A stretch of 63,472 nt of DNA. Origin: a virus (Duplodnaviria; Caudoviricetes). The stretch covers positions 1-63,472 of IMG/VR virus record IMGVR_UViG_3300045825_000308; one strand, given 5' to 3'. Numbering within the stretch: position 1 is the stretch's first letter; every line of letters starts with the position of its first letter. Shown piece by piece: positions 25,512-38,020 of this stretch. The translations under genes and the position numbers were made by a program. The notes below the pieces were generated by a model. It did no database searches, was not told where the DNA came from, and worked only from the letters and a program-made list of their open reading frames with translations.

Positions 25512-25796
25512 ATGTTTAACTTTTGCATTGTATTGAATACTGCTCCATTTTATGTGTTGGCTCAAAATGAAAAAGATTTAGAAGAAATTCTAAAAGTTTA
25601 TGAAGGTAAAATTTCTATTGTGGTCAAAGCAAAAGATTTAGAAGTAATGGAATTTAAAATGCAAATGAGTTTGTTTTCTAAAAATACTCTATTAATTCCG
25701 ACAGTGGTCGAAGAAACTCAAGATGCTTTAGCTAAAATGATTAATGCTTCTGAACAAGATGAATTAATTTATGAATTAACTAATGATATTAACTGA
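25512..25796 (+). CDS. hypothetical protein
   Basis: AAGGA RBS; last gene of the tail operon, convergent overlap with the helicase. Confidence 0.6.
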   Translation: MFNFCIVLNTAPFYVLAQNEKDLEEILKVYEGKISIVVKAKDLEVMEFKMQMSLFSKNTLLIPTVVEETQDALAKMINASEQDELIYELTNDIN

Positions 25797-26657
25797 TTTG
25801 CCGTATACTTCTTTAATGATGCTCATTCTAGCTTTAGAGTGGGCAATTAAATTCTTCTGACCATTGTCTATAAAGTCAAAATAATATCCTACTTGTTTGT
25901 TTTTAAAATTTCTCACAACTCTTCCACACTTTTGCATTAATTCAGATTCAGCTTTACCACCACCACAATTAATAATAGCTCCAGCTGCTTTAGTATCAAC
26001 GCCTTCACCTAAAACATCTGTTCCGATTAAACAAGGAATTTCTAAATTATTAAACTTTTTTACCATTTGCATATTATAAGATGCAGATTCATCTTGACCA
26101 TTTAAAAAGACGGCATCCTTTCCAAGGGCGCTTTGCAATTGCCTTCCATGGCCTATGTGTTCCACTAATATAATTGTCGGAACATTATTACGAATCATTT
26201 TTTTAGCTGTTTCAATAACAATTGCATTTCTAGCTTGATTGTTATCAATAAATAAAGGCACATCGCTTTTATAATTCTTCTTAGAAAGAATCTTTTTATT
26301 TGGCATATCAAAGAAAAAACTAACTAACGGTTTAATATATCCTAGATTGATAGCCTCTATAGTGGTAACAGAATATAAGGTATCACTTAAAACAGATTCT
26401 AAATAGATATTAGAATTAGGATCGTTTTTAAAATTCGTCGCTGTTAATCCATACCGATAATAGATTTCCGATAATCGATCGGCAAAATCAATTCTAACGC
26501 CTTCAGCACCAGAATTAGACGTTAAAATACCTTCAGCAACATAGTTATGATTATCTTCAACTGTTATATCATAGACCCACTCATCTGCTGAATCAACCTC
26601 TTCAATACTAATAATTGTTCCTTTGAGTAGTTCTCTGGTATCCTGACAATTTTCCAT
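25776..26657 (-). CDS. SF2 helicase C-terminal part preceded by a 48-aa C-intein
   Basis: VYDITVEDNHNYVAEGILTSN/S; GLTAT, EGVD and QKCGRVVR motifs (III, V, VI). Confidence 0.85.
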   Translation of the reverse strand: MENCQDTRELLKGTIISIEEVDSADEWVYDITVEDNHNYVAEGILTSNSGAEGVRIDFADRLSEIYYRYGLTATNFKNDPNSNIYLESVLSDTLYSVTTIEAINLGYIKPLVSFFFDMPNKKILSKKNYKSDVPLFIDNNQARNAIVIETAKKMIRNNVPTIILVEHIGHGRQLQSALGKDAVFLNGQDESASYNMQMVKKFNNLEIPCLIGTDVLGEGVDTKAAGAIINCGGGKAESELMQKCGRVVRNFKNKQVGYYFDFIDNGQKNLIAHSKARMSIIKEVYGKSVNIIS

Positions 26658-27361
26658 CCAATGCTTCCTAGTCTTATTTCTTTGCGTAAATCTTGTGCTT
26701 CTCTTCCTTTATGCGATGTTCCATCAACTTCAATGCCTATTTTTAAATCAGCATTAGCTAAATCTATTTTATAATTTCGTGGAAATTCACCATCTTTTAA
26801 ACCAATAGCAACTTCTGCTTCAAAGTTTTTAAAAATATCTAGCAAATAGATTTGAGTTGGCGTTAATGCACCACCATTCCCATATGTTCCACGACCAAAA
26901 GGATTATAAGAACCATCAGCAATTTTAGATTTTATTTTTAAAGATTGTTTTGATCGTACTTCGATAGAACGGTTTTTATTTGCCAGCGCAATTATTTCTC
27001 TATGTTTTTTTGATTTGCAGTTTTCTTGCCTAGTTTTAGGGGCAAGTCCCATAGTAAGTTTATCTCCAATTTTCATTTGTTCAATTCTAATCTTCCCATT
27101 ATCAGTTAAAAACTTATGATTTTTTGTTACTATAAATTCTTTTATATTTCCATCTTCATCTTGAACCCTTACTTTTAACATTTTGGGGGGAGCAGGATAT
27201 CTCATAGCATTTATAACTAATTTAGATTCCCATGCTTTACCGTTCCACGATATTACTTTTGGCTTACTGCCGTTATGAAATAACTTATAGATCTCTTCAA
27301 TAGTGCGAGTCTTATATGATTTTGATTTCGATCCAGAAATTTTAGTAAGTGGTGTAAAACA
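26514..27361 (-). mobile_element. intein spanning two reading frames, with endonuclease
   Basis: Cys1 codon at 27361; terminal Asn codon at 26516-26514; +1 Ser restores DEFHHSGA. Confidence 0.85.
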
Positions 27362-27985
27362 ATGATGGAACTCATCAAATATCAATTGAGAAAACTGCTT
27401 AAAGTAATTCGGATCCTTCGATGATAGAGCATGAAAATTCGTAACTATGATTGGCTTATCATGATGAACTTTTAATAATCCAACATCATCTGTTCCGAAA
27501 GATTCTGTTAAATACTCATAAGTCTGTTGTCGAAGATTTCCTGATGGTGTAATGATTAGCGTTGGTCTTTGAGTTCTAATAAGAGCTTCTTTAATAACTC
27601 TGCTTTTTCCAATACCAGTTGGCATTTCTAAAACACCGCTTGTGTTAGTTGCAATAGCATGAGCTCCAAGAATTTGTTCAGGATATAAAGGTGGTTCAAT
27701 TAATCTGTCAATTAAATTAATAGATTTGTGTTTGGGGATGATTCTGTTATCGGCAATATTAACCGGAAGATATCGTTCATCAAAATATTTGCTTACCCTT
27801 TTTACTAAGCCTGTTGGAAAATATCCATCTTCATCTATCAATAGAGTTGTTGAGGCATATCTATTTTTAGTTCTGATCCACGTTGACATGTTAAAATAAC
27901 TTACAGTCATTCGTAAGTTTTTAAGTAAGGATTTATCTAATCCAACAACACGAGACATAGAATTATTTAAAATTATCGTTATCAT
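26564..27985 (-). CDS. SF2 helicase N-terminal part + N-intein + Vsr/EDxHD-like endonuclease
   Basis: MPTGIGKS; DEFHH/CF; VTKNHKF block B; IDLA...IEVDGTSH. Confidence 0.85.
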   Translation of the reverse strand: MITIILNNSMSRVVGLDKSLLKNLRMTVSYFNMSTWIRTKNRYASTTLLIDEDGYFPTGLVKRVSKYFDERYLPVNIADNRIIPKHKSINLIDRLIEPPLYPEQILGAHAIATNTSGVLEMPTGIGKSRVIKEALIRTQRPTLIITPSGNLRQQTYEYLTESFGTDDVGLLKVHHDKPIIVTNFHALSSKDPNYFKQFSQLIFDEFHHCFTPLTKISGSKSKSYKTRTIEEIYKLFHNGSKPKVISWNGKAWESKLVINAMRYPAPPKMLKVRVQDEDGNIKEFIVTKNHKFLTDNGKIRIEQMKIGDKLTMGLAPKTRQENCKSKKHREIIALANKNRSIEVRSKQSLKIKSKIADGSYNPFGRGTYGNGGALTPTQIYLLDIFKNFEAEVAIGLKDGEFPRNYKIDLANADLKIGIEVDGTSHKGREAQDLRKEIRLGSIGWKIVRIPENYSKEQLLVLKRLIQQMSGSMI

Positions 27986-28648
27986 TATACATAATACTTT
28001 CTGTTAATAGAAAAAAAACGGGCGCAACATTGAATAGGTATTCTACGAAGTTGGAAAAGAATGATCTTTTTTATTTTTGCATATCGTTTTTCTGTTATAC
28101 GAAGTATCAGAAGACTCTAGGACCGGTGGTTGGACATTGGTTTTGTCCCCCGCCCTCCAGAGAGGGGGCAAAAAGGCAAAGGAGACTCCTTAAGGTATCT
28201 TAATAAGAGTTTTAAGAAAGACAAGAGAGAGAAAATAAAAATCTAGAGAAAAAATAAGAGAAAAAAATAAAGTCAAGAGAAAAAATATAAATAATTAAAA
28301 ATAAAGATAATAGTAAAAATATATTAAATAAAGATTTACAAAATGAGACTTCTTGATAAAATATCGAAATAAGATTAATATTAAGATTTATATATAAATA
28401 ATTTATAAAAATTATTGTAAAAATTTCAAGGTCTCGCTTCACTTGGGTTCTCGCTCAGTGAAATTTTCCATAATTATAAAAAATTAAATTTAAAAAATAT
28501 TTTAAAATTTTAAAAAACTTCAATTTACGCTATTTGTCATATTACGCAGTACTTCCATCAACACCTCTAGACGCACATCATCAAAAAATACCTTTAAAAT
28601 TATAAGAGTATTATCCATCACAGTATCTATAAAAGTAAAAGGTTATTA
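27986..28648. other. AT-rich divergent intergenic region, candidate replication origin / promoter region
   Basis: no credible ORF; A-rich tract and inverted repeats; lies between helicase and DnaB/primase. Confidence 0.5.
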
Positions 28649-34030: not shown

Positions 34031-37000
34031 ATGATCACATACGCTAATCTAAATACTAAATCACATTATTCAGCAGGTCTAGCAGTTGGCACAACAACTG
34101 AAATTATAAAAAAGGCTATGGAGAAAAAACTTCATGGCCTTGCTTTAACAGATCGCAACACAGCGTCTGGCTTAATTGATTTTTATAATAAAGCAAAAGA
34201 ATTAAAATTCAAAGCATCTCTTGGTATTGAGATTTTTTATTATGATAATGCAAACAAACTTCAAAAAATCGTTCTATTAGCTATTAACCAGGAAGGTTAT
34301 TTTAATCTATGTCATTTAGTAACTAATTCATGGAATAATGTTCATTTATTTAATATGCCATGTGTTTCTTTATACGATTTAAATGAATATTCGCAATATT
34401 TATATTGTTTATCGAGTTCATTTGCACAAAGAAAAGATTTAAAGTCTATCTATAAAGACAAACTAATTTTTCAAATATTCTTAGACTATCAAAATAATGA
34501 AAATAATTTTAATATCTTAAAATCCTCAGAAAAATATATTATTTCATGTGATGCTTTTATTCCTGATTGGGATTTTAAAGAGCTTCAAGATGTAATGTTA
34601 AGCAATAGTAAATCTGCTACTGATGCAGATAAAGCTATTAGCGCTAAGCCAATCTTATCAGCTGTTGAAATAATGCAATATTGGAAAACCAATATGAATT
34701 ATATGACAATAGAACAATTGGCACAAGCTTTTCAATTATCTGTTTCAATTCTAGATGAATGCTCAAAGATTGAATTAAAGTTTAGAGATCAGGTTGTAAA
34801 TTATCCTCACCTTCTTCATCCATTAAATCATGACGGTTGTTCAAAAGAAGAGTTGGTTTATAGAATAGCTAAAGATTATGGAAGATTTCCTATTGATAAT
34901 TCAATATATAAAGACAGATTTGAATATGAGATGGATGCTATCACCAATAACGGAAGAGTAAATCTAATAGATTATTTCTTAGTGCTTGAAGATTTGTGCA
35001 GATGGTGTAGAGAGAATGGTATTACTGTTGGTCCAGGCAGGGGTTCTGGAGCTGGAGCTCTTGTTAACTATTGTCTGAAGATTACTCACTTGGATCCTAT
35101 TGTTTATAATCTTTTATTTGAAAGATTCATATCTAAAGGAAGGATAATCAATGGAAATATGCCCGATGTCGACCTAGATTTTTCCGAGCAAGAACCAGTT
35201 AGAGAATATTTAATAGAAAAATATGGATCTGATCGAGTTTATAGAATAGGAACGTTTCAAACATTAAAAACATTAGGCTCTATTAAAGATATTTGTAAAT
35301 CAATGCAAGATAAATATCCAGAATTAGATTTTGTTACTGTTAATAACGTTACAAAAACTTTTGGAGATAAAGACATAGAAGAATCAGAAGCTGAATTTTT
35401 TGAAAGAGTGTTAGAAGAAAATGAAGTTGCGCAAACCTTCTTCCAAAAATATCCAGATGTATTAAGCAAGGTTGAAAGGCTTGTTGGATATAATAGACAA
35501 GCGGGTATTCATCCCTGCTTTAATGGTAATATGAAAATATTAACAGATATCGGATATAAAACTTTTTATGAATTAGAAAATAAAAGCGCTATGATTTTAA
35601 CGCCATCCGGTTGGAGAAATGCTGTATTTTTTAAAAATGGTATAAAACAAACGTATAAACATATTATCGCAAGATCACATTTATCAACGAGAGGATACAT
35701 AGAAATTATATGTACAAAAGATCATATATTTAAATCAGACAATGATAGTGATTCAGAATTATATAAAAAGAAGATCTTGAGTAATCATAATTGTAATGAG
35801 TTAAGTTTAAATCATTTTTTATTAGGTTGGATATGGAATGATGGTTATTTTAATAAAAATGCAAATAGATTTATTGCATGCATCACCCCAGAGAAGGATA
35901 AGGAATTTTTTAAAATTTTTCCTGAGGATAATTTTCAATTAAAGCAAAAAAAATATGCATATACTTTTAAACATGAATTTAATCAAATTTTTGATAACCT
36001 TGGATATGATTATAATAAAACCACAACTAAGCAGTTTCCAATACAATGGAACACTTGGACAATTATAGAAAAATTTTCATGGCTTAAGGGAATGTTTTCA
36101 GCAAATGGATTTATCGTAAGAAAAAAATTTGGCATTAAATTAACATCTAGAAAATTAATTATTGATATGATTACGGCATTGAATGAATTAGGCATTACGA
36201 CAACAACAAATTTTAATGATCAGCCATCAATCGAGTGGAAATCAAAGGCTGCAAGTTATTTTTATTTAACACAGCATGGTAATAACACTTTTATTAAAGC
36301 TATAGGCTTTGTACAAGATTATAAGAATAATAATATTTTGAAAGATAACAGATATATTGCGCAAAAAATAATTAAACACAACATAGAGCCTGTTTTTGAT
36401 TTTACCGTTATTGATGGAGATCCATATGGCTTGGTTGAGGGATTTTGGGCACACAATTGTGGACTCGCATTGTGTCAAGATAATGTAGAAGACTTTGCTC
36501 CACTGAGATCATATAAGGGCACAAAAGTTTTAGATATTAATGCTGGAGCATGTGAACAATCGGGAATTTTAAAATATGATATCTTAGGATTAAGAACTTT
36601 AAAATATATTCAAGCCACATGTGATCTCGTTGGCATTAAAGATATTTACTCTATACCGTTGGATGATAGACTAACCCACAATAAGTTTGCTGAGGGAGAT
36701 ACTAATGGAGTGTTTCAGTTTAATTCTGATGTAGCTATTGGAATCTTAACAATGATACCAAAGAATAAAATGTCTTTGGATGTTGAATCATTAACAACAT
36801 CATGTGGACGTCCAGGACCAATGCGAAATGGACAGCATATTGAATTTGCAAAAAGAGTGAGTGGTGATAGATTAGCAACAGCTCCGCACCCAGCACTTGA
36901 AGAAGAATTAAAATCAACATTCGGAATTATGATTTATCAAGAAAATGTTATGAAGACATCACAAATACTTGGTGGATTTTCTTTAGCCGAAGCAGATGAT

Positions 37001-38020
37001 ATTAGACGCGCAATGGGTAAAAAGAAAGCATCTGTGCTTGCTCCATATAAAAGTAGATTCATTGACAATTGTCAACTTAAATTTCCTGAAACTAAAGATA
37101 AATATTTAGATGAAAAAAATCCAAGCTCAACTATATCTAAAGCAGAATACATTTGGAACTTAATGGCTACATTTTCCGGGTATGGTTTTTGCAAGGCCCA
37201 CAGCGTTGCATATACTCTTATTGGTTATCAATGTCAATATTTAAAGACTCATCATCATCTTGAATGGTGGACAGCTTGCTTAATGCATGCTAAGTCAGAT
37301 AAGATTCAATCTTATTATCAAGATGCTATGCAGTATTGTATCGATCCAGATATTAATAAATCACAAGAAAACTATAAAATTATTGATGGCAAAATTCAAA
37401 TGCCACTAACCTCTATTAAGGGATTAGGGCCAAAAGCTTCACAAGACATTTATTACTTGAGACCATTCACTTCAATGCAAGATTGTTTAACTAGAGTCAA
37501 CAAAAGAGCTGTTAATAAAAAAGTTGCTCTCCAATTGATTTATGCAGGTTGTTTTGACTCACTTCATCCAGAAGGAAAACAACATCTAGTTAATGAATAC
37601 TTTAGATTTCGTGGTGAAAAAGCACCAGAAGAATTAAAAACCCTAACAAGAAATCAATTAACAGACTTTAGAATTAAAGCTTTGTCTTATTTGCAGAGAG
37701 ATTTATATGAAATCTTTGCAGATATATTTTCAGAACCATTAACGCAATATGAAAATATAGTTATGACCAATGAGCCAATCCATATACTTGGAAAAGTAGA
37801 TTCACTAAAGAAAAAGAAAACAAAGAATGGTAATGATTTTGGCGACTTAATGATTTCAAATAATGGCGAAGTATTAAAGATAAGAATGTGGGAAGACGAA
37901 TTGAAATGTTACAAAGAGAACTTAAAAGAAAAGAATGAACTAAGACTAAAATGTAAAGTGTCAGAGTACAATAACCAAGTACAGCTTACATTAATTAGTT
38001 GTAAAATATTGGGAGTTTAA
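34031..38020 (+). CDS. dnaE: DNA polymerase III alpha subunit with intein
   Basis: GPGRGSGAG, FERF, PDVDLD, KYDILGL, GVFQF, IYQE, GYGFCKAHS; C-terminal OB fold. Confidence 0.95.
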   Translation: MITYANLNTKSHYSAGLAVGTTTEIIKKAMEKKLHGLALTDRNTASGLIDFYNKAKELKFKASLGIEIFYYDNANKLQKIVLLAINQEGYFNLCHLVTNSWNNVHLFNMPCVSLYDLNEYSQYLYCLSSSFAQRKDLKSIYKDKLIFQIFLDYQNNENNFNILKSSEKYIISCDAFIPDWDFKELQDVMLSNSKSATDADKAISAKPILSAVEIMQYWKTNMNYMTIEQLAQAFQLSVSILDECSKIELKFRDQVVNYPHLLHPLNHDGCSKEELVYRIAKDYGRFPIDNSIYKDRFEYEMDAITNNGRVNLIDYFLVLEDLCRWCRENGITVGPGRGSGAGALVNYCLKITHLDPIVYNLLFERFISKGRIINGNMPDVDLDFSEQEPVREYLIEKYGSDRVYRIGTFQTLKTLGSIKDICKSMQDKYPELDFVTVNNVTKTFGDKDIEESEAEFFERVLEENEVAQTFFQKYPDVLSKVERLVGYNRQAGIHPCFNGNMKILTDIGYKTFYELENKSAMILTPSGWRNAVFFKNGIKQTYKHIIARSHLSTRGYIEIICTKDHIFKSDNDSDSELYKKKILSNHNCNELSLNHFLLGWIWNDGYFNKNANRFIACITPEKDKEFFKIFPEDNFQLKQKKYAYTFKHEFNQIFDNLGYDYNKTTTKQFPIQWNTWTIIEKFSWLKGMFSANGFIVRKKFGIKLTSRKLIIDMITALNELGITTTTNFNDQPSIEWKSKAASYFYLTQHGNNTFIKAIGFVQDYKNNNILKDNRYIAQKIIKHNIEPVFDFTVIDGDPYGLVEGFWAHNCGLALCQDNVEDFAPLRSYKGTKVLDINAGACEQSGILKYDILGLRTLKYIQATCDLVGIKDIYSIPLDDRLTHNKFAEGDTNGVFQFNSDVAIGILTMIPKNKMSLDVESLTTSCGRPGPMRNGQHIEFAKRVSGDRLATAPHPALEEELKSTFGIMIYQENVMKTSQILGGFSLAEADDIRRAMGKKKASVLAPYKSRFIDNCQLKFPETKDKYLDEKNPSSTISKAEYIWNLMATFSGYGFCKAHSVAYTLIGYQCQYLKTHHHLEWWTACLMHAKSDKIQSYYQDAMQYCIDPDINKSQENYKIIDGKIQMPLTSIKGLGPKASQDIYYLRPFTSMQDCLTRVNKRAVNKKVALQLIYAGCFDSLHPEGKQHLVNEYFRFRGEKAPEELKTLTRNQLTDFRIKALSYLQRDLYEIFADIFSEPLTQYENIVMTNEPIHILGKVDSLKKKKTKNGNDFGDLMISNNGEVLKIRMWEDELKCYKENLKEKNELRLKCKVSEYNNQVQLTLISCKILGV
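35516..36457 (+). mobile_element. cis intein (314 aa) with LAGLIDADG-type endonuclease
   Basis: GIHP/CFNG; CTKDH; LLGWIWNDG; LKGMFSANG; VFDF...AHN/C. Confidence 0.9.

Follow-up and report, generated by a model that had tools for sequence, protein, structure and literature searches.

A candidate split intein in a phage helicase gene, with a nuclease fused to its N-terminal half

Organization of the helicase locus

We analyzed a 63,472-nucleotide (nt) stretch of viral DNA (Duplodnaviria; Caudoviricetes; IMG/VR record IMGVR_UViG_3300045825_000308, positions 1 to 63,472), here called the window, and focused on a phage helicase gene that is carried in two overlapping open reading frames (ORFs) and holds the two halves of an intein together with a nuclease domain. 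The ORF listing agreed with a first-pass annotation made from the letters of the DNA: ORF1 (27985..26564, minus strand) encodes 473 amino acids (aa) and ends at its own stop codon (26564-26566), ORF2 (26657..25776, minus strand) encodes 293 aa in the -1 frame relative to ORF1, and the two overlap by 94 nt (26564-26657). The -1 frame is open only from 17 codons before the ATG of ORF2 (26657-26655), that is, from 145 nt before the ORF1 stop. All features described below lie on the minus strand.

ORF1 (26564..27985) is composed, in order, of a helicase N-extein, an intein N half, a linker and a DUF559 nuclease, and its translation contained all of the motifs that had been listed for it (MPTGIGKS, DEFHH followed by Cys209, VTKNH, IEVDGTSH and GWKIVRI). 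The N-extein (residues 1-208; 27362..27985) belongs to a UvsW/XPB-like superfamily 2 (SF2) helicase with motif I (MPTGIGKS) and motif II (DEFHH), as indicated by Pfam ResIII/DEAD matches (ResIII at residues 112-212, E 3.2e-11) and by Foldseek, in which the predicted helicase structure resembled T4 UvsW (best match 1rif, E 2.6e-9) and archaeal XPB. The intein N half (residues 209 to ~315; 27041..27361) begins with Cys209 of block A directly after DEFHH and includes Thr287 and His290 of block B, and positions 9-112 of the 155-position Intein_splicing profile were matched at residues 225-338. It is followed by a linker (residues ~316-372; 26870..27040) with two predicted helices rich in lysine, arginine and serine and then a conserved GRG.YGNGG, and by the nuclease core (residues 373-473; 26567..26869), in which Pfam placed DUF559 at residues 404-452 (E 3.4e-6; 27.3 bits against a cut-off of 20.6).

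ORF2 (25776..26657) encodes the remainder of both the intein and the helicase, and an independent gene call (P0041) begins at the same methionine. The 48-aa intein C half proposed earlier was found at residues 1-48 (26514..26657), with a TIISIEEV strand, block F (VYDITVEDNHNY) and block G (ILTSN, with Asn48 last), and residues 8-47 matched the complementary positions 116-154 of the Intein_splicing profile. The C-extein (residues 49-293; 25779..26513) opens with Ser49, the +1 nucleophile, and contains motif III (LTAT) and a Helicase_C domain (residues 156-250, E 4.6e-10), in agreement with its alignment to intein-less helicases. An AGGA-type motif had been noted before the ORF2 start, and we located a Shine-Dalgarno (SD)-like AGGAAG (26664..26669) inside the ORF1 coding sequence, 6 nt upstream of the ATG. 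The overlap (26564..26657) encodes the GWKIVRI strand and C-terminal helix of the nuclease in one frame and codons 1-31 of ORF2 in the other. As the annotation had predicted, removal of the intein would join DEFHH to SGAEG, and this junction aligned with DEFHR-SAADG of an intein-less helicase (P0005, 444 aa).

Plus-strand genes flank the helicase pair on both sides, with tail and lysis genes up to 25796 and replication genes from 28649 onward, and no other minus-strand unit lies between them. The end of ORF2 overlaps the end of a converging plus-strand ORF (25512-25796) by 21 nt.

Conservation of the two-ORF layout

A protein search with ORF1, open to subject lengths of up to 828 aa, returned 37 matches, among them the protein of the window itself. 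Of the 36 others, nine (434-496 aa, 39-51% identical) shared the architecture of helicase N part, intein N half and nuclease, and their tails aligned to a common end (RIPEN.SKE.L..LK.LI...S.SM followed by the stop). The other 27 covered the N-extein only and comprised intein-less helicases of 424-513 aa and one 272-aa fragment. No one-piece form of this helicase, expected at ~735 aa, was found among the 37 matches. As weak evidence of absence, a search for longer proteins yielded a single match, an in-frame DUF559 intein in a UvrD-type helicase (P0039), and a search with ORF2 residues 1-60 recovered only the window's own protein and one relative.

We further collected the DNA of relatives in two scans (32 viral and 63 metagenome loci). 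Seven loci, the window included, showed ORF1 followed by a -1-frame ORF2 with an overlap of 91-94 nt, and in all seven, stops close the -1 frame 5-17 codons upstream of the ORF2 start. Four of these DNA loci matched none of the nine proteins above 67%, and the two-ORF layout was thereby represented in 14 distinct lineages. Against the phage collection, blastn of positions 25700-28050 gave no match, and tblastn with both ORFs detected only distant helicases and nuclease matches inside genes named 'helicase', among the latter gp43 of phi673 (see below).

These data bear on the possibility that a one-base insertion or deletion introduced by sequencing or assembly splits what is truly a single ORF. 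Only the two-frame layout itself would speak for such an error, and we found no support for it: the identical stop and frame recurred in independent assemblies at 40-50% identity, and contigs from two sequencing runs (X1, depth 211; X2, depth 85) were identical to positions 25700-28050 with 0 differences and 0 gaps, although X1 and X2 are possibly the source sample itself and are contigs rather than raw reads, so that minor indel variants could be hidden. A third run contained identical 151-nt pieces at 26668-26818 and 26902-27052. The earlier argument that two meaningful frames speak against a sequencing error is therefore strengthened by the 14 lineages and by the indel-free contigs, and the probability of an artifact is practically negligible.

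Dual coding and the start of ORF2

To describe coding in the overlap, we calculated codon-phase conservation as the mean pairwise nucleotide identity at each codon phase. The wobble position of ORF1 was the least conserved in the nuclease-only zone (0.39), and that of ORF2 was the least conserved in the ORF2-only zone (0.41). Within the overlap, all three phases were at least 0.76 across ORF2 codons 1-11, and the ORF2 wobble position was again the lowest (0.59) across codons 12-22. This pattern indicates that both frames are protein-coding, with a hand-over in the first third of the overlap. The last helix of the nuclease model (ORF1 residues 455-470; block predicted local distance difference test, pLDDT, 84-92) lies inside the overlap, so the ORF1 tail looks like real protein and not read-through.

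We then compared the -1-frame codon at the conserved Gly-Trp codon pair, and the presence of an SD-like motif 4-16 nt upstream of it, between the seven loci of the window layout and 54 other loci. The codon was ATG in six and GTG in one of the seven (TTG, GTT and GTA in none), and all seven carried an SD-like motif. In the 54 others, where the same codon is an internal valine of the intein, it was GTG in 44, TTG in four, and ATG, GTT and GTA in two each, and an SD-like motif was present in only one. Across the loci of the window layout, the SD position encodes different ORF1 residues (G, R, E, W) while the GGAG/AGGA nucleotides persist. Among the loci compared, the ATG with its SD-like motif is specific to the clade of the window, and in the aligned sequences these signals are kept while neighboring wobble positions are randomized.

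These observations also bear on an alternative offered by the first-pass annotation, namely a cis intein produced by programmed -1 frameshifting, in which a fraction of the ribosomes in the overlap would slip into the ORF2 frame, as could happen at TCA AAG G (26624), and yield a one-piece, cis-splicing precursor. The -1 placement of ORF2 in 7/7 loci and the very high nucleotide conservation of overlap codons 1-11 are compatible with slippage, and a slip at 26624 would give ...PENYSK-GTIISIEEV..., a plausible intein sequence. The site itself is a single in-frame A AAG tetramer, which is present in 5/7 loci and absent from L003 and L037, and its lysine is absent from the related proteins P0002 and P0003. 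In line with the earlier reading of the overlap, no canonical slippery heptamer (X XXY YYZ) was found in it or in the 30 nt upstream. Nor did we detect a stimulatory RNA structure in the overlap region, which folded worse than shuffled sequence (minimum free energy -16 kcal/mol versus a shuffle mean of -22.9, z +2.28; 199/200 shuffles folded at least as well); weak folding would suit an open ribosome-binding site. Moreover, slippage does not need the ATG and SD-like motif that the clade has gained, and the -1 relation is inherited family-wide from a nested arrangement (see below) and is not particular to the window layout. Of the two readings in the annotation, we consequently favor trans-splicing with an N-fused nuclease and consider the frameshift-dependent cis intein distinctly unlikely.

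Splicing residues and predicted association of the halves

Splicing residues are conserved on both sides of the break. Cys209, Thr287 and His290 were invariant in 10/10 aligned N halves, and Asp30, His37, Asn48 and Ser49 as well as Asn38 were invariant in 7/7 C halves, which end in the C-terminal Asn followed by the +1 Ser. Host alleles with contiguous exteins and no intein are also available, namely P0005 and 26 further helicases that matched the N-extein only.

Complex prediction with ORF1 residues 199-473 and ORF2 residues 1-70 gave a score of 0.84, compared with 0.00 for the best control; the mark applied to this score was reached by 116/157 solved complexes and by 2/215 mismatched pairs. 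The runs agreed in at least 81% of contacts, the partner pLDDT was at least 62, and the predicted interface joined ORF2 residues 3-49 to ORF1 residues 207-315, that is, to the intein and not to the nuclease.

Charge complementarity was also considered as evidence for association and was set aside. The mean charge of the C half was -6.4 in the split clade and -3.7 in nested forms, with N halves of +3 to +14, and charge did not separate the split clade from one-piece forms.

The same data can be read as a two-subunit helicase without splicing, in which the intein halves only hold the pieces together or the gene works in pieces. Predicted docking needs no chemistry, and the penultimate His of the intein is missing, both of which would suit such an arrangement. 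On the other side, neither the splicing nucleophiles nor the residues of blocks B and F vary among sequences with an overall identity of only ~40-50%, and the Ser-Asn-Ser end of the C half is shared with a one-piece relative at the same helicase site (L005). As the latter must splice in cis to provide a helicase, this end goes with a splicing-dependent form. A helicase that operates as two unspliced subunits is accordingly quite improbable.

A trans-splicing reading of the locus

Taken together, the conserved stop and -1-frame ORF2, the clade-specific start and SD-like motif, the invariant splicing residues and the predicted docking favor trans-splicing. From these sequence comparisons, we consider it likely, with a probability of roughly three in four, that this phage UvsW/XPB-like helicase gene contains a naturally split intein that splices in trans and has its homing nuclease fused in frame to the N fragment.

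In the mechanism that we propose, a single transcript would bear both ORFs. Ribosomes translating ORF1 would yield the helicase N half, the intein N half and the nuclease, stopping at 26564, and other ribosomes would initiate independently at ATG 26657 by means of AGGAAG within the nuclease-coding region, giving the 48-aa intein C half joined to the helicase C half. The acidic C half would dock on the basic N half and complete the Hedgehog/intein (HINT) fold, after which Cys209, Thr287/His290, Asn48 and Ser49 would splice DEFHH to SGAEG and release a one-piece helicase of ~453 aa. The by-product would be a 265-aa chain of intein N half plus nuclease that retains the 48-aa C piece as a bound partner, which amounts to a conventional nuclease-bearing intein nicked after the nuclease domain. 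Acting as a homing endonuclease, this complex would cut intein-less helicase alleles and so spread the whole unit. Independent initiation, trans-splicing and cleavage are the steps that we infer.

Several points weigh against this reading. The two halves of the Intein_splicing profile are complementary but scored 18.6 and 27.4 bits, each below the Pfam gathering cut-off of 35.8 bits. The substitution of Ser for the penultimate His that had been noted in the C half proved to be general, with Ser47 in 7/7 loci and also in the one-piece relative L005 (VSNS); the penultimate His of inteins is common and not universal. The docking result may reflect likeness to split inteins with solved structures that the model has learned. 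The clade has a single origin on our quick tree, and the 7/7 counts for start codon and SD-like motif are not seven independent events. The A AAG at 26624, kept in 5/7 loci, would permit a -1 slip into ORF2, and initiation 94 nt inside a translated ORF may be inefficient. Finally, the two runs that agree with the sequence may be the sample of its assembly.

The nuclease and its family

The nuclease looks intact from its sequence. All of the residues that are invariant in a 63-sequence family alignment are present in the window (Y405, D408, E419, D421, G422, H425, D432 and L439), and they include, taken as a set, the putative catalytic acidic and His residues (D408, E419, D421, H425 and D432). 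The domain was modeled by AlphaFold2 (AF2) with a pLDDT of 87.3, and the top Foldseek match was the catalytic domain of I-Bth0305I (3r3p; E 1.9e-3, template modeling score 0.53/0.63), with Escherichia coli Vsr (1vsr) at rank 6 and a DUF559 structure (3hrl) at rank 21. At the profile level, the family matched 3hrl with E 4.4e-10 and 3r3p with E 2.4e-5. The earlier label 'Vsr/EDxHD-like' is thus sound for fold and profile, 3r3p being the best fold match, and DUF559 is the closer family. The Phe-Trp-His motif of Vsr and of the Vsr-like nucleases of fractured phage genes was not found in the window nuclease, which has G-T-S-H in its place. In the linker, AF2 predicted helices at residues 323-337 and 341-356, with low pLDDT at 313-330 and 358-372. 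We presume from this model that the linker is a DNA-binding part of the nuclease, and to us it recalls NUMOD-type motifs.

A survey of this nuclease in 73 non-duplicate loci placed the window in a wider context. In 59/73 loci, which we term nested, the frame one base behind the nuclease is open across the whole nuclease ORF; the host ORFs span several hundred to 2,500 codons, belong to many different genes and stay open across ~190-260 nuclease codons, and in 52/59 an intein end (..HN followed by C, S or T) occurs within 60 codons. The nested loci are therefore one-piece inteins with a nuclease gene in the +1 frame, as Pfam confirms for L005. A cultured example is gp43 of Corynebacterium phage phi673 (L098), whose 'putative helicase' coding sequence of 836 aa contains the nuclease in the +1 frame with no nuclease annotated. 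Three further arrangements were rarer: a fractured form (L026 and L084), in which stop codons in the linker leave a free-standing nuclease that overlaps both halves; an in-frame form (L041 and P0039), with the nuclease in frame in a one-piece intein; and a form without an intein (L068), with a free nuclease gene adjoining a helicase. The seven loci of the window layout, whose nuclease shares the reading frame of the N half and not that of the C half, represent a rare fourth layout. Wherever both parts were found, the intein C half was in the -1 frame relative to the nuclease, except in the in-frame L041 and in L030, where tblastn placed the C-half match ~3 kb downstream and a motif search did find an intein end in the -1 frame of this locus. 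The window layout is a rare derivative of this larger family with the nuclease out of frame in one-piece inteins, which the first-pass annotation had overlooked.

In nested loci, one stretch of nucleotides encodes both the GW(K/T)VLRF strand of the nuclease and the V(E/D)S(I/V)E(V/I) strand of the intein. The Gly codon is fixed as GGG in 44/54 loci since GWKVLRF and VESIEV share nucleotides.

Two further loci resemble the window in part. At the same helicase site (DEFHH/C), L004 (3713-6197) has an ORF1 of 553 aa and an ORF2 in the +1 frame with an 8-nt overlap, and its ORF1 consists of the helicase N part, the intein N half and, after the N-terminal splicing strands, a different C-terminal extension of ~190 aa. 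This extension matched no Pfam family of its own at E 0.01, and an Intein_splicing stretch (261-416) spans part of it; by eye, it contains CxxC...H...H and FWH, a Vsr-like motif. L004 may be an independent case of a nuclease fused to an N half. L086 (1228-2711) carries a single frame that extends from the N-extein of a UvrD-like helicase (DLVIIDE/C) through the intein N half into the same nuclease and on to the contig end. The locus represents either a further N-fused case, in a different host gene, or a one-piece intein with the nuclease in frame.

Origin and mobility

We next built a quick maximum-likelihood tree of 67 nuclease cores with a midpoint root. The seven loci of the window layout formed one group (Shimodaira-Hasegawa-like approximate likelihood ratio test, SH-aLRT, 92), sister to L005 (96), a long-branched sequence whose nuclease is nested in the +1 frame of a one-piece intein at this helicase site; both fell among nested forms. 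A zinc-finger-like N-terminal region of L005 is absent from the window. Comparison of these sequences points to a probable origin through one frame change or deletion on the 5' side of the nuclease gene, which would have fused the nuclease to the intein N half and broken the host frame, and the direction from nested to split is the parsimonious reading of the midpoint-rooted tree.

That one indel suffices to turn a nested, ancestor-like form into the window layout would also suit a decaying element, in which the helicase has been inactivated by a frameshift and ORF2 is silent. Such decay is very improbable given that both ORFs are open in all 14 distinct lineages, that the wobble patterns reflect purifying selection on ORF1 upstream and on ORF2 downstream of the overlap, and that the motifs of the helicase C half are retained.

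Among intein-less helicases, the N-extein of the window showed 92% identity to P0005 and 52-72% to 15 others. Compared with the other carriers, the window was 28-36% identical in the exteins (50% in the C-extein of L001), 52-58% in the nuclease and 60-78% in the intein C half. This sporadic distribution suggests homing spread of the whole split unit, as judged from sequence identity, and unequal constraint could add to the difference between exteins and element.

These data led us to a fuller picture, which we hold as plausible at slightly less than an even chance: an actively homing split intein whose endonuclease is covalently joined to the N fragment, with the C fragment held noncovalently, as a living, half-finished instance of step IIIa of the hypothetical scheme of Dassa et al. 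(2009; PMC2677866). In this scenario, the 3' side of the nuclease would be locked throughout the DUF559-intein family by shared nucleotides one base out of register, as an in-frame join there would cost either the last strand and helix of the nuclease or the first C-terminal strand of the intein. Fusion would for that reason have occurred on the 5' side only, and the ATG and ribosome-binding site would then have evolved from the Gly-Trp codon pair so that translation could restart.

Two side observations concern other elements. X1 and X2 also hold a diverged contig (depths 24.9 and 6.75, respectively) that matches the window only at 26535-26773, which covers the overlap and the catalytic stretch of the nuclease, and this suggests that a related element co-occurs in another phage. 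In addition, the DNA polymerase III alpha gene of the window (34031-38020, plus strand, 1329 aa) has a gap of ~360 aa between Pfam domains (496 to 857). The gap (~35520-36500) contains GIHP/CFNGN, TKDH, the LAGLIDADG-like LLGWIWNDGYF and WLKGMFSANGF, and GFWAHN/C, and thus reads as an ordinary in-frame intein, the second and canonical intein in the same phage.

Implications

The locus is a real and conserved split intein, probably functional on the evidence of its sequence, with an N-fused homing nuclease and a dual-coding restart. It is an observed and conserved intermediate between states that the 2009 model links only by hypothesis, namely a nuclease that is out of frame or free-standing, an intein in two parts, and a nuclease domain in frame. 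A single nuclease family includes every one of these stages, which opens their order to study on real sequences. The start codon and ribosome-binding site of ORF2 appear to be carved from the coding sequence of another protein (GGG-TGG, Val, in nested forms to GGA-TGG, Met, in the window), which makes the overlap a clean case of dual coding in which both products are needed.

The layout is also relevant to the ways in which homing nucleases ensure that they are expressed, since this one is carried along by translation of the host gene. If the halves trans-splice, the locus would provide a natural split intein with a large N fragment that carries a DNA-binding nuclease and a C fragment of 48 aa, which may interest protein engineers. 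Moreover, gene callers and annotators would split such a locus into three entries, a helicase cut short, a 'very-short-patch-repair endonuclease' and another piece of helicase, and two source names among the ORF1 matches already read this way.

Comparison with known systems

Our literature search found no published N-fused form, although the supplements of Dassa et al. or Gorbalenya 1998 could contain one. In I-Bth0305I, the prototype of the EDxHD homing endonucleases, which is encoded in a group I intron and free-standing (Taylor et al. 2011, PMC3239194), a helical N-terminal linker precedes the catalytic domain, as in the window, and 3r3p is the best fold match. Unlike I-Bth0305I, the window nuclease is covalently joined to an intein half, and the two are only ~22% identical.

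Within the DUF559 loci, the window shares with the nested-nuclease inteins the same nuclease family and the same -1 relation between nuclease and C half, and the principle of a nested, out-of-frame nuclease has been described for a cyanobacterial dnaX intein (Phillips, DeSimone & Gogarten; bioRxiv 10.64898/2026.09.14.751524). In contrast to the nested forms, the host frame of the window is not open across the nuclease, the N side stands in the nuclease frame, and the gene is in two pieces. The same order of intein N part, nuclease and intein C part is found in canonical bifunctional inteins (L041 and P0039), with the nuclease likewise at the customary site behind the N-terminal splicing strands. 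In these, the last nuclease helix is followed by the first strand of the C half in one frame, whereas in the window the same 94 nt encode both in two frames.

The closest published parallel is offered by the fractured genes of Dassa et al. 2009 (PMC2677866). These consist of an N half, a stop, 27-51 non-coding bases, a free-standing GIY-YIG or Vsr-like nuclease and a C half; the intein N parts measure 88-105 aa and the C halves 33-54 aa, and the host is gp41. In 15 loci, the 3' end of the nuclease overlaps the start of the C half by 6-69 bp and supplies the initiator Met. The first-pass annotation had stated correctly that a free-standing nuclease gene typically lies between the halves of such genes. 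Like these loci, the window combines a phage DNA-metabolism gene, a split intein and a Vsr-fold nuclease at the break, the 3' end of its nuclease overlaps the start of the C half, and its 48-aa C half falls within the reported range. Unlike them, it has neither stop nor spacer, the nuclease continues the frame of the N half, the N part measures 265 aa and the overlap of 94 nt is longer; the nuclease is of the DUF559 type (E.DG..H) and not FWH Vsr-like, and the host is an SF2 helicase and not gp41. Dassa et al. also proposed, as the hypothetical step IIIa, that loss of the flanks of the nuclease gene could re-create an in-frame intein. By analogy with this step, the window looks like half of it, in which only the 5' flank has been lost.

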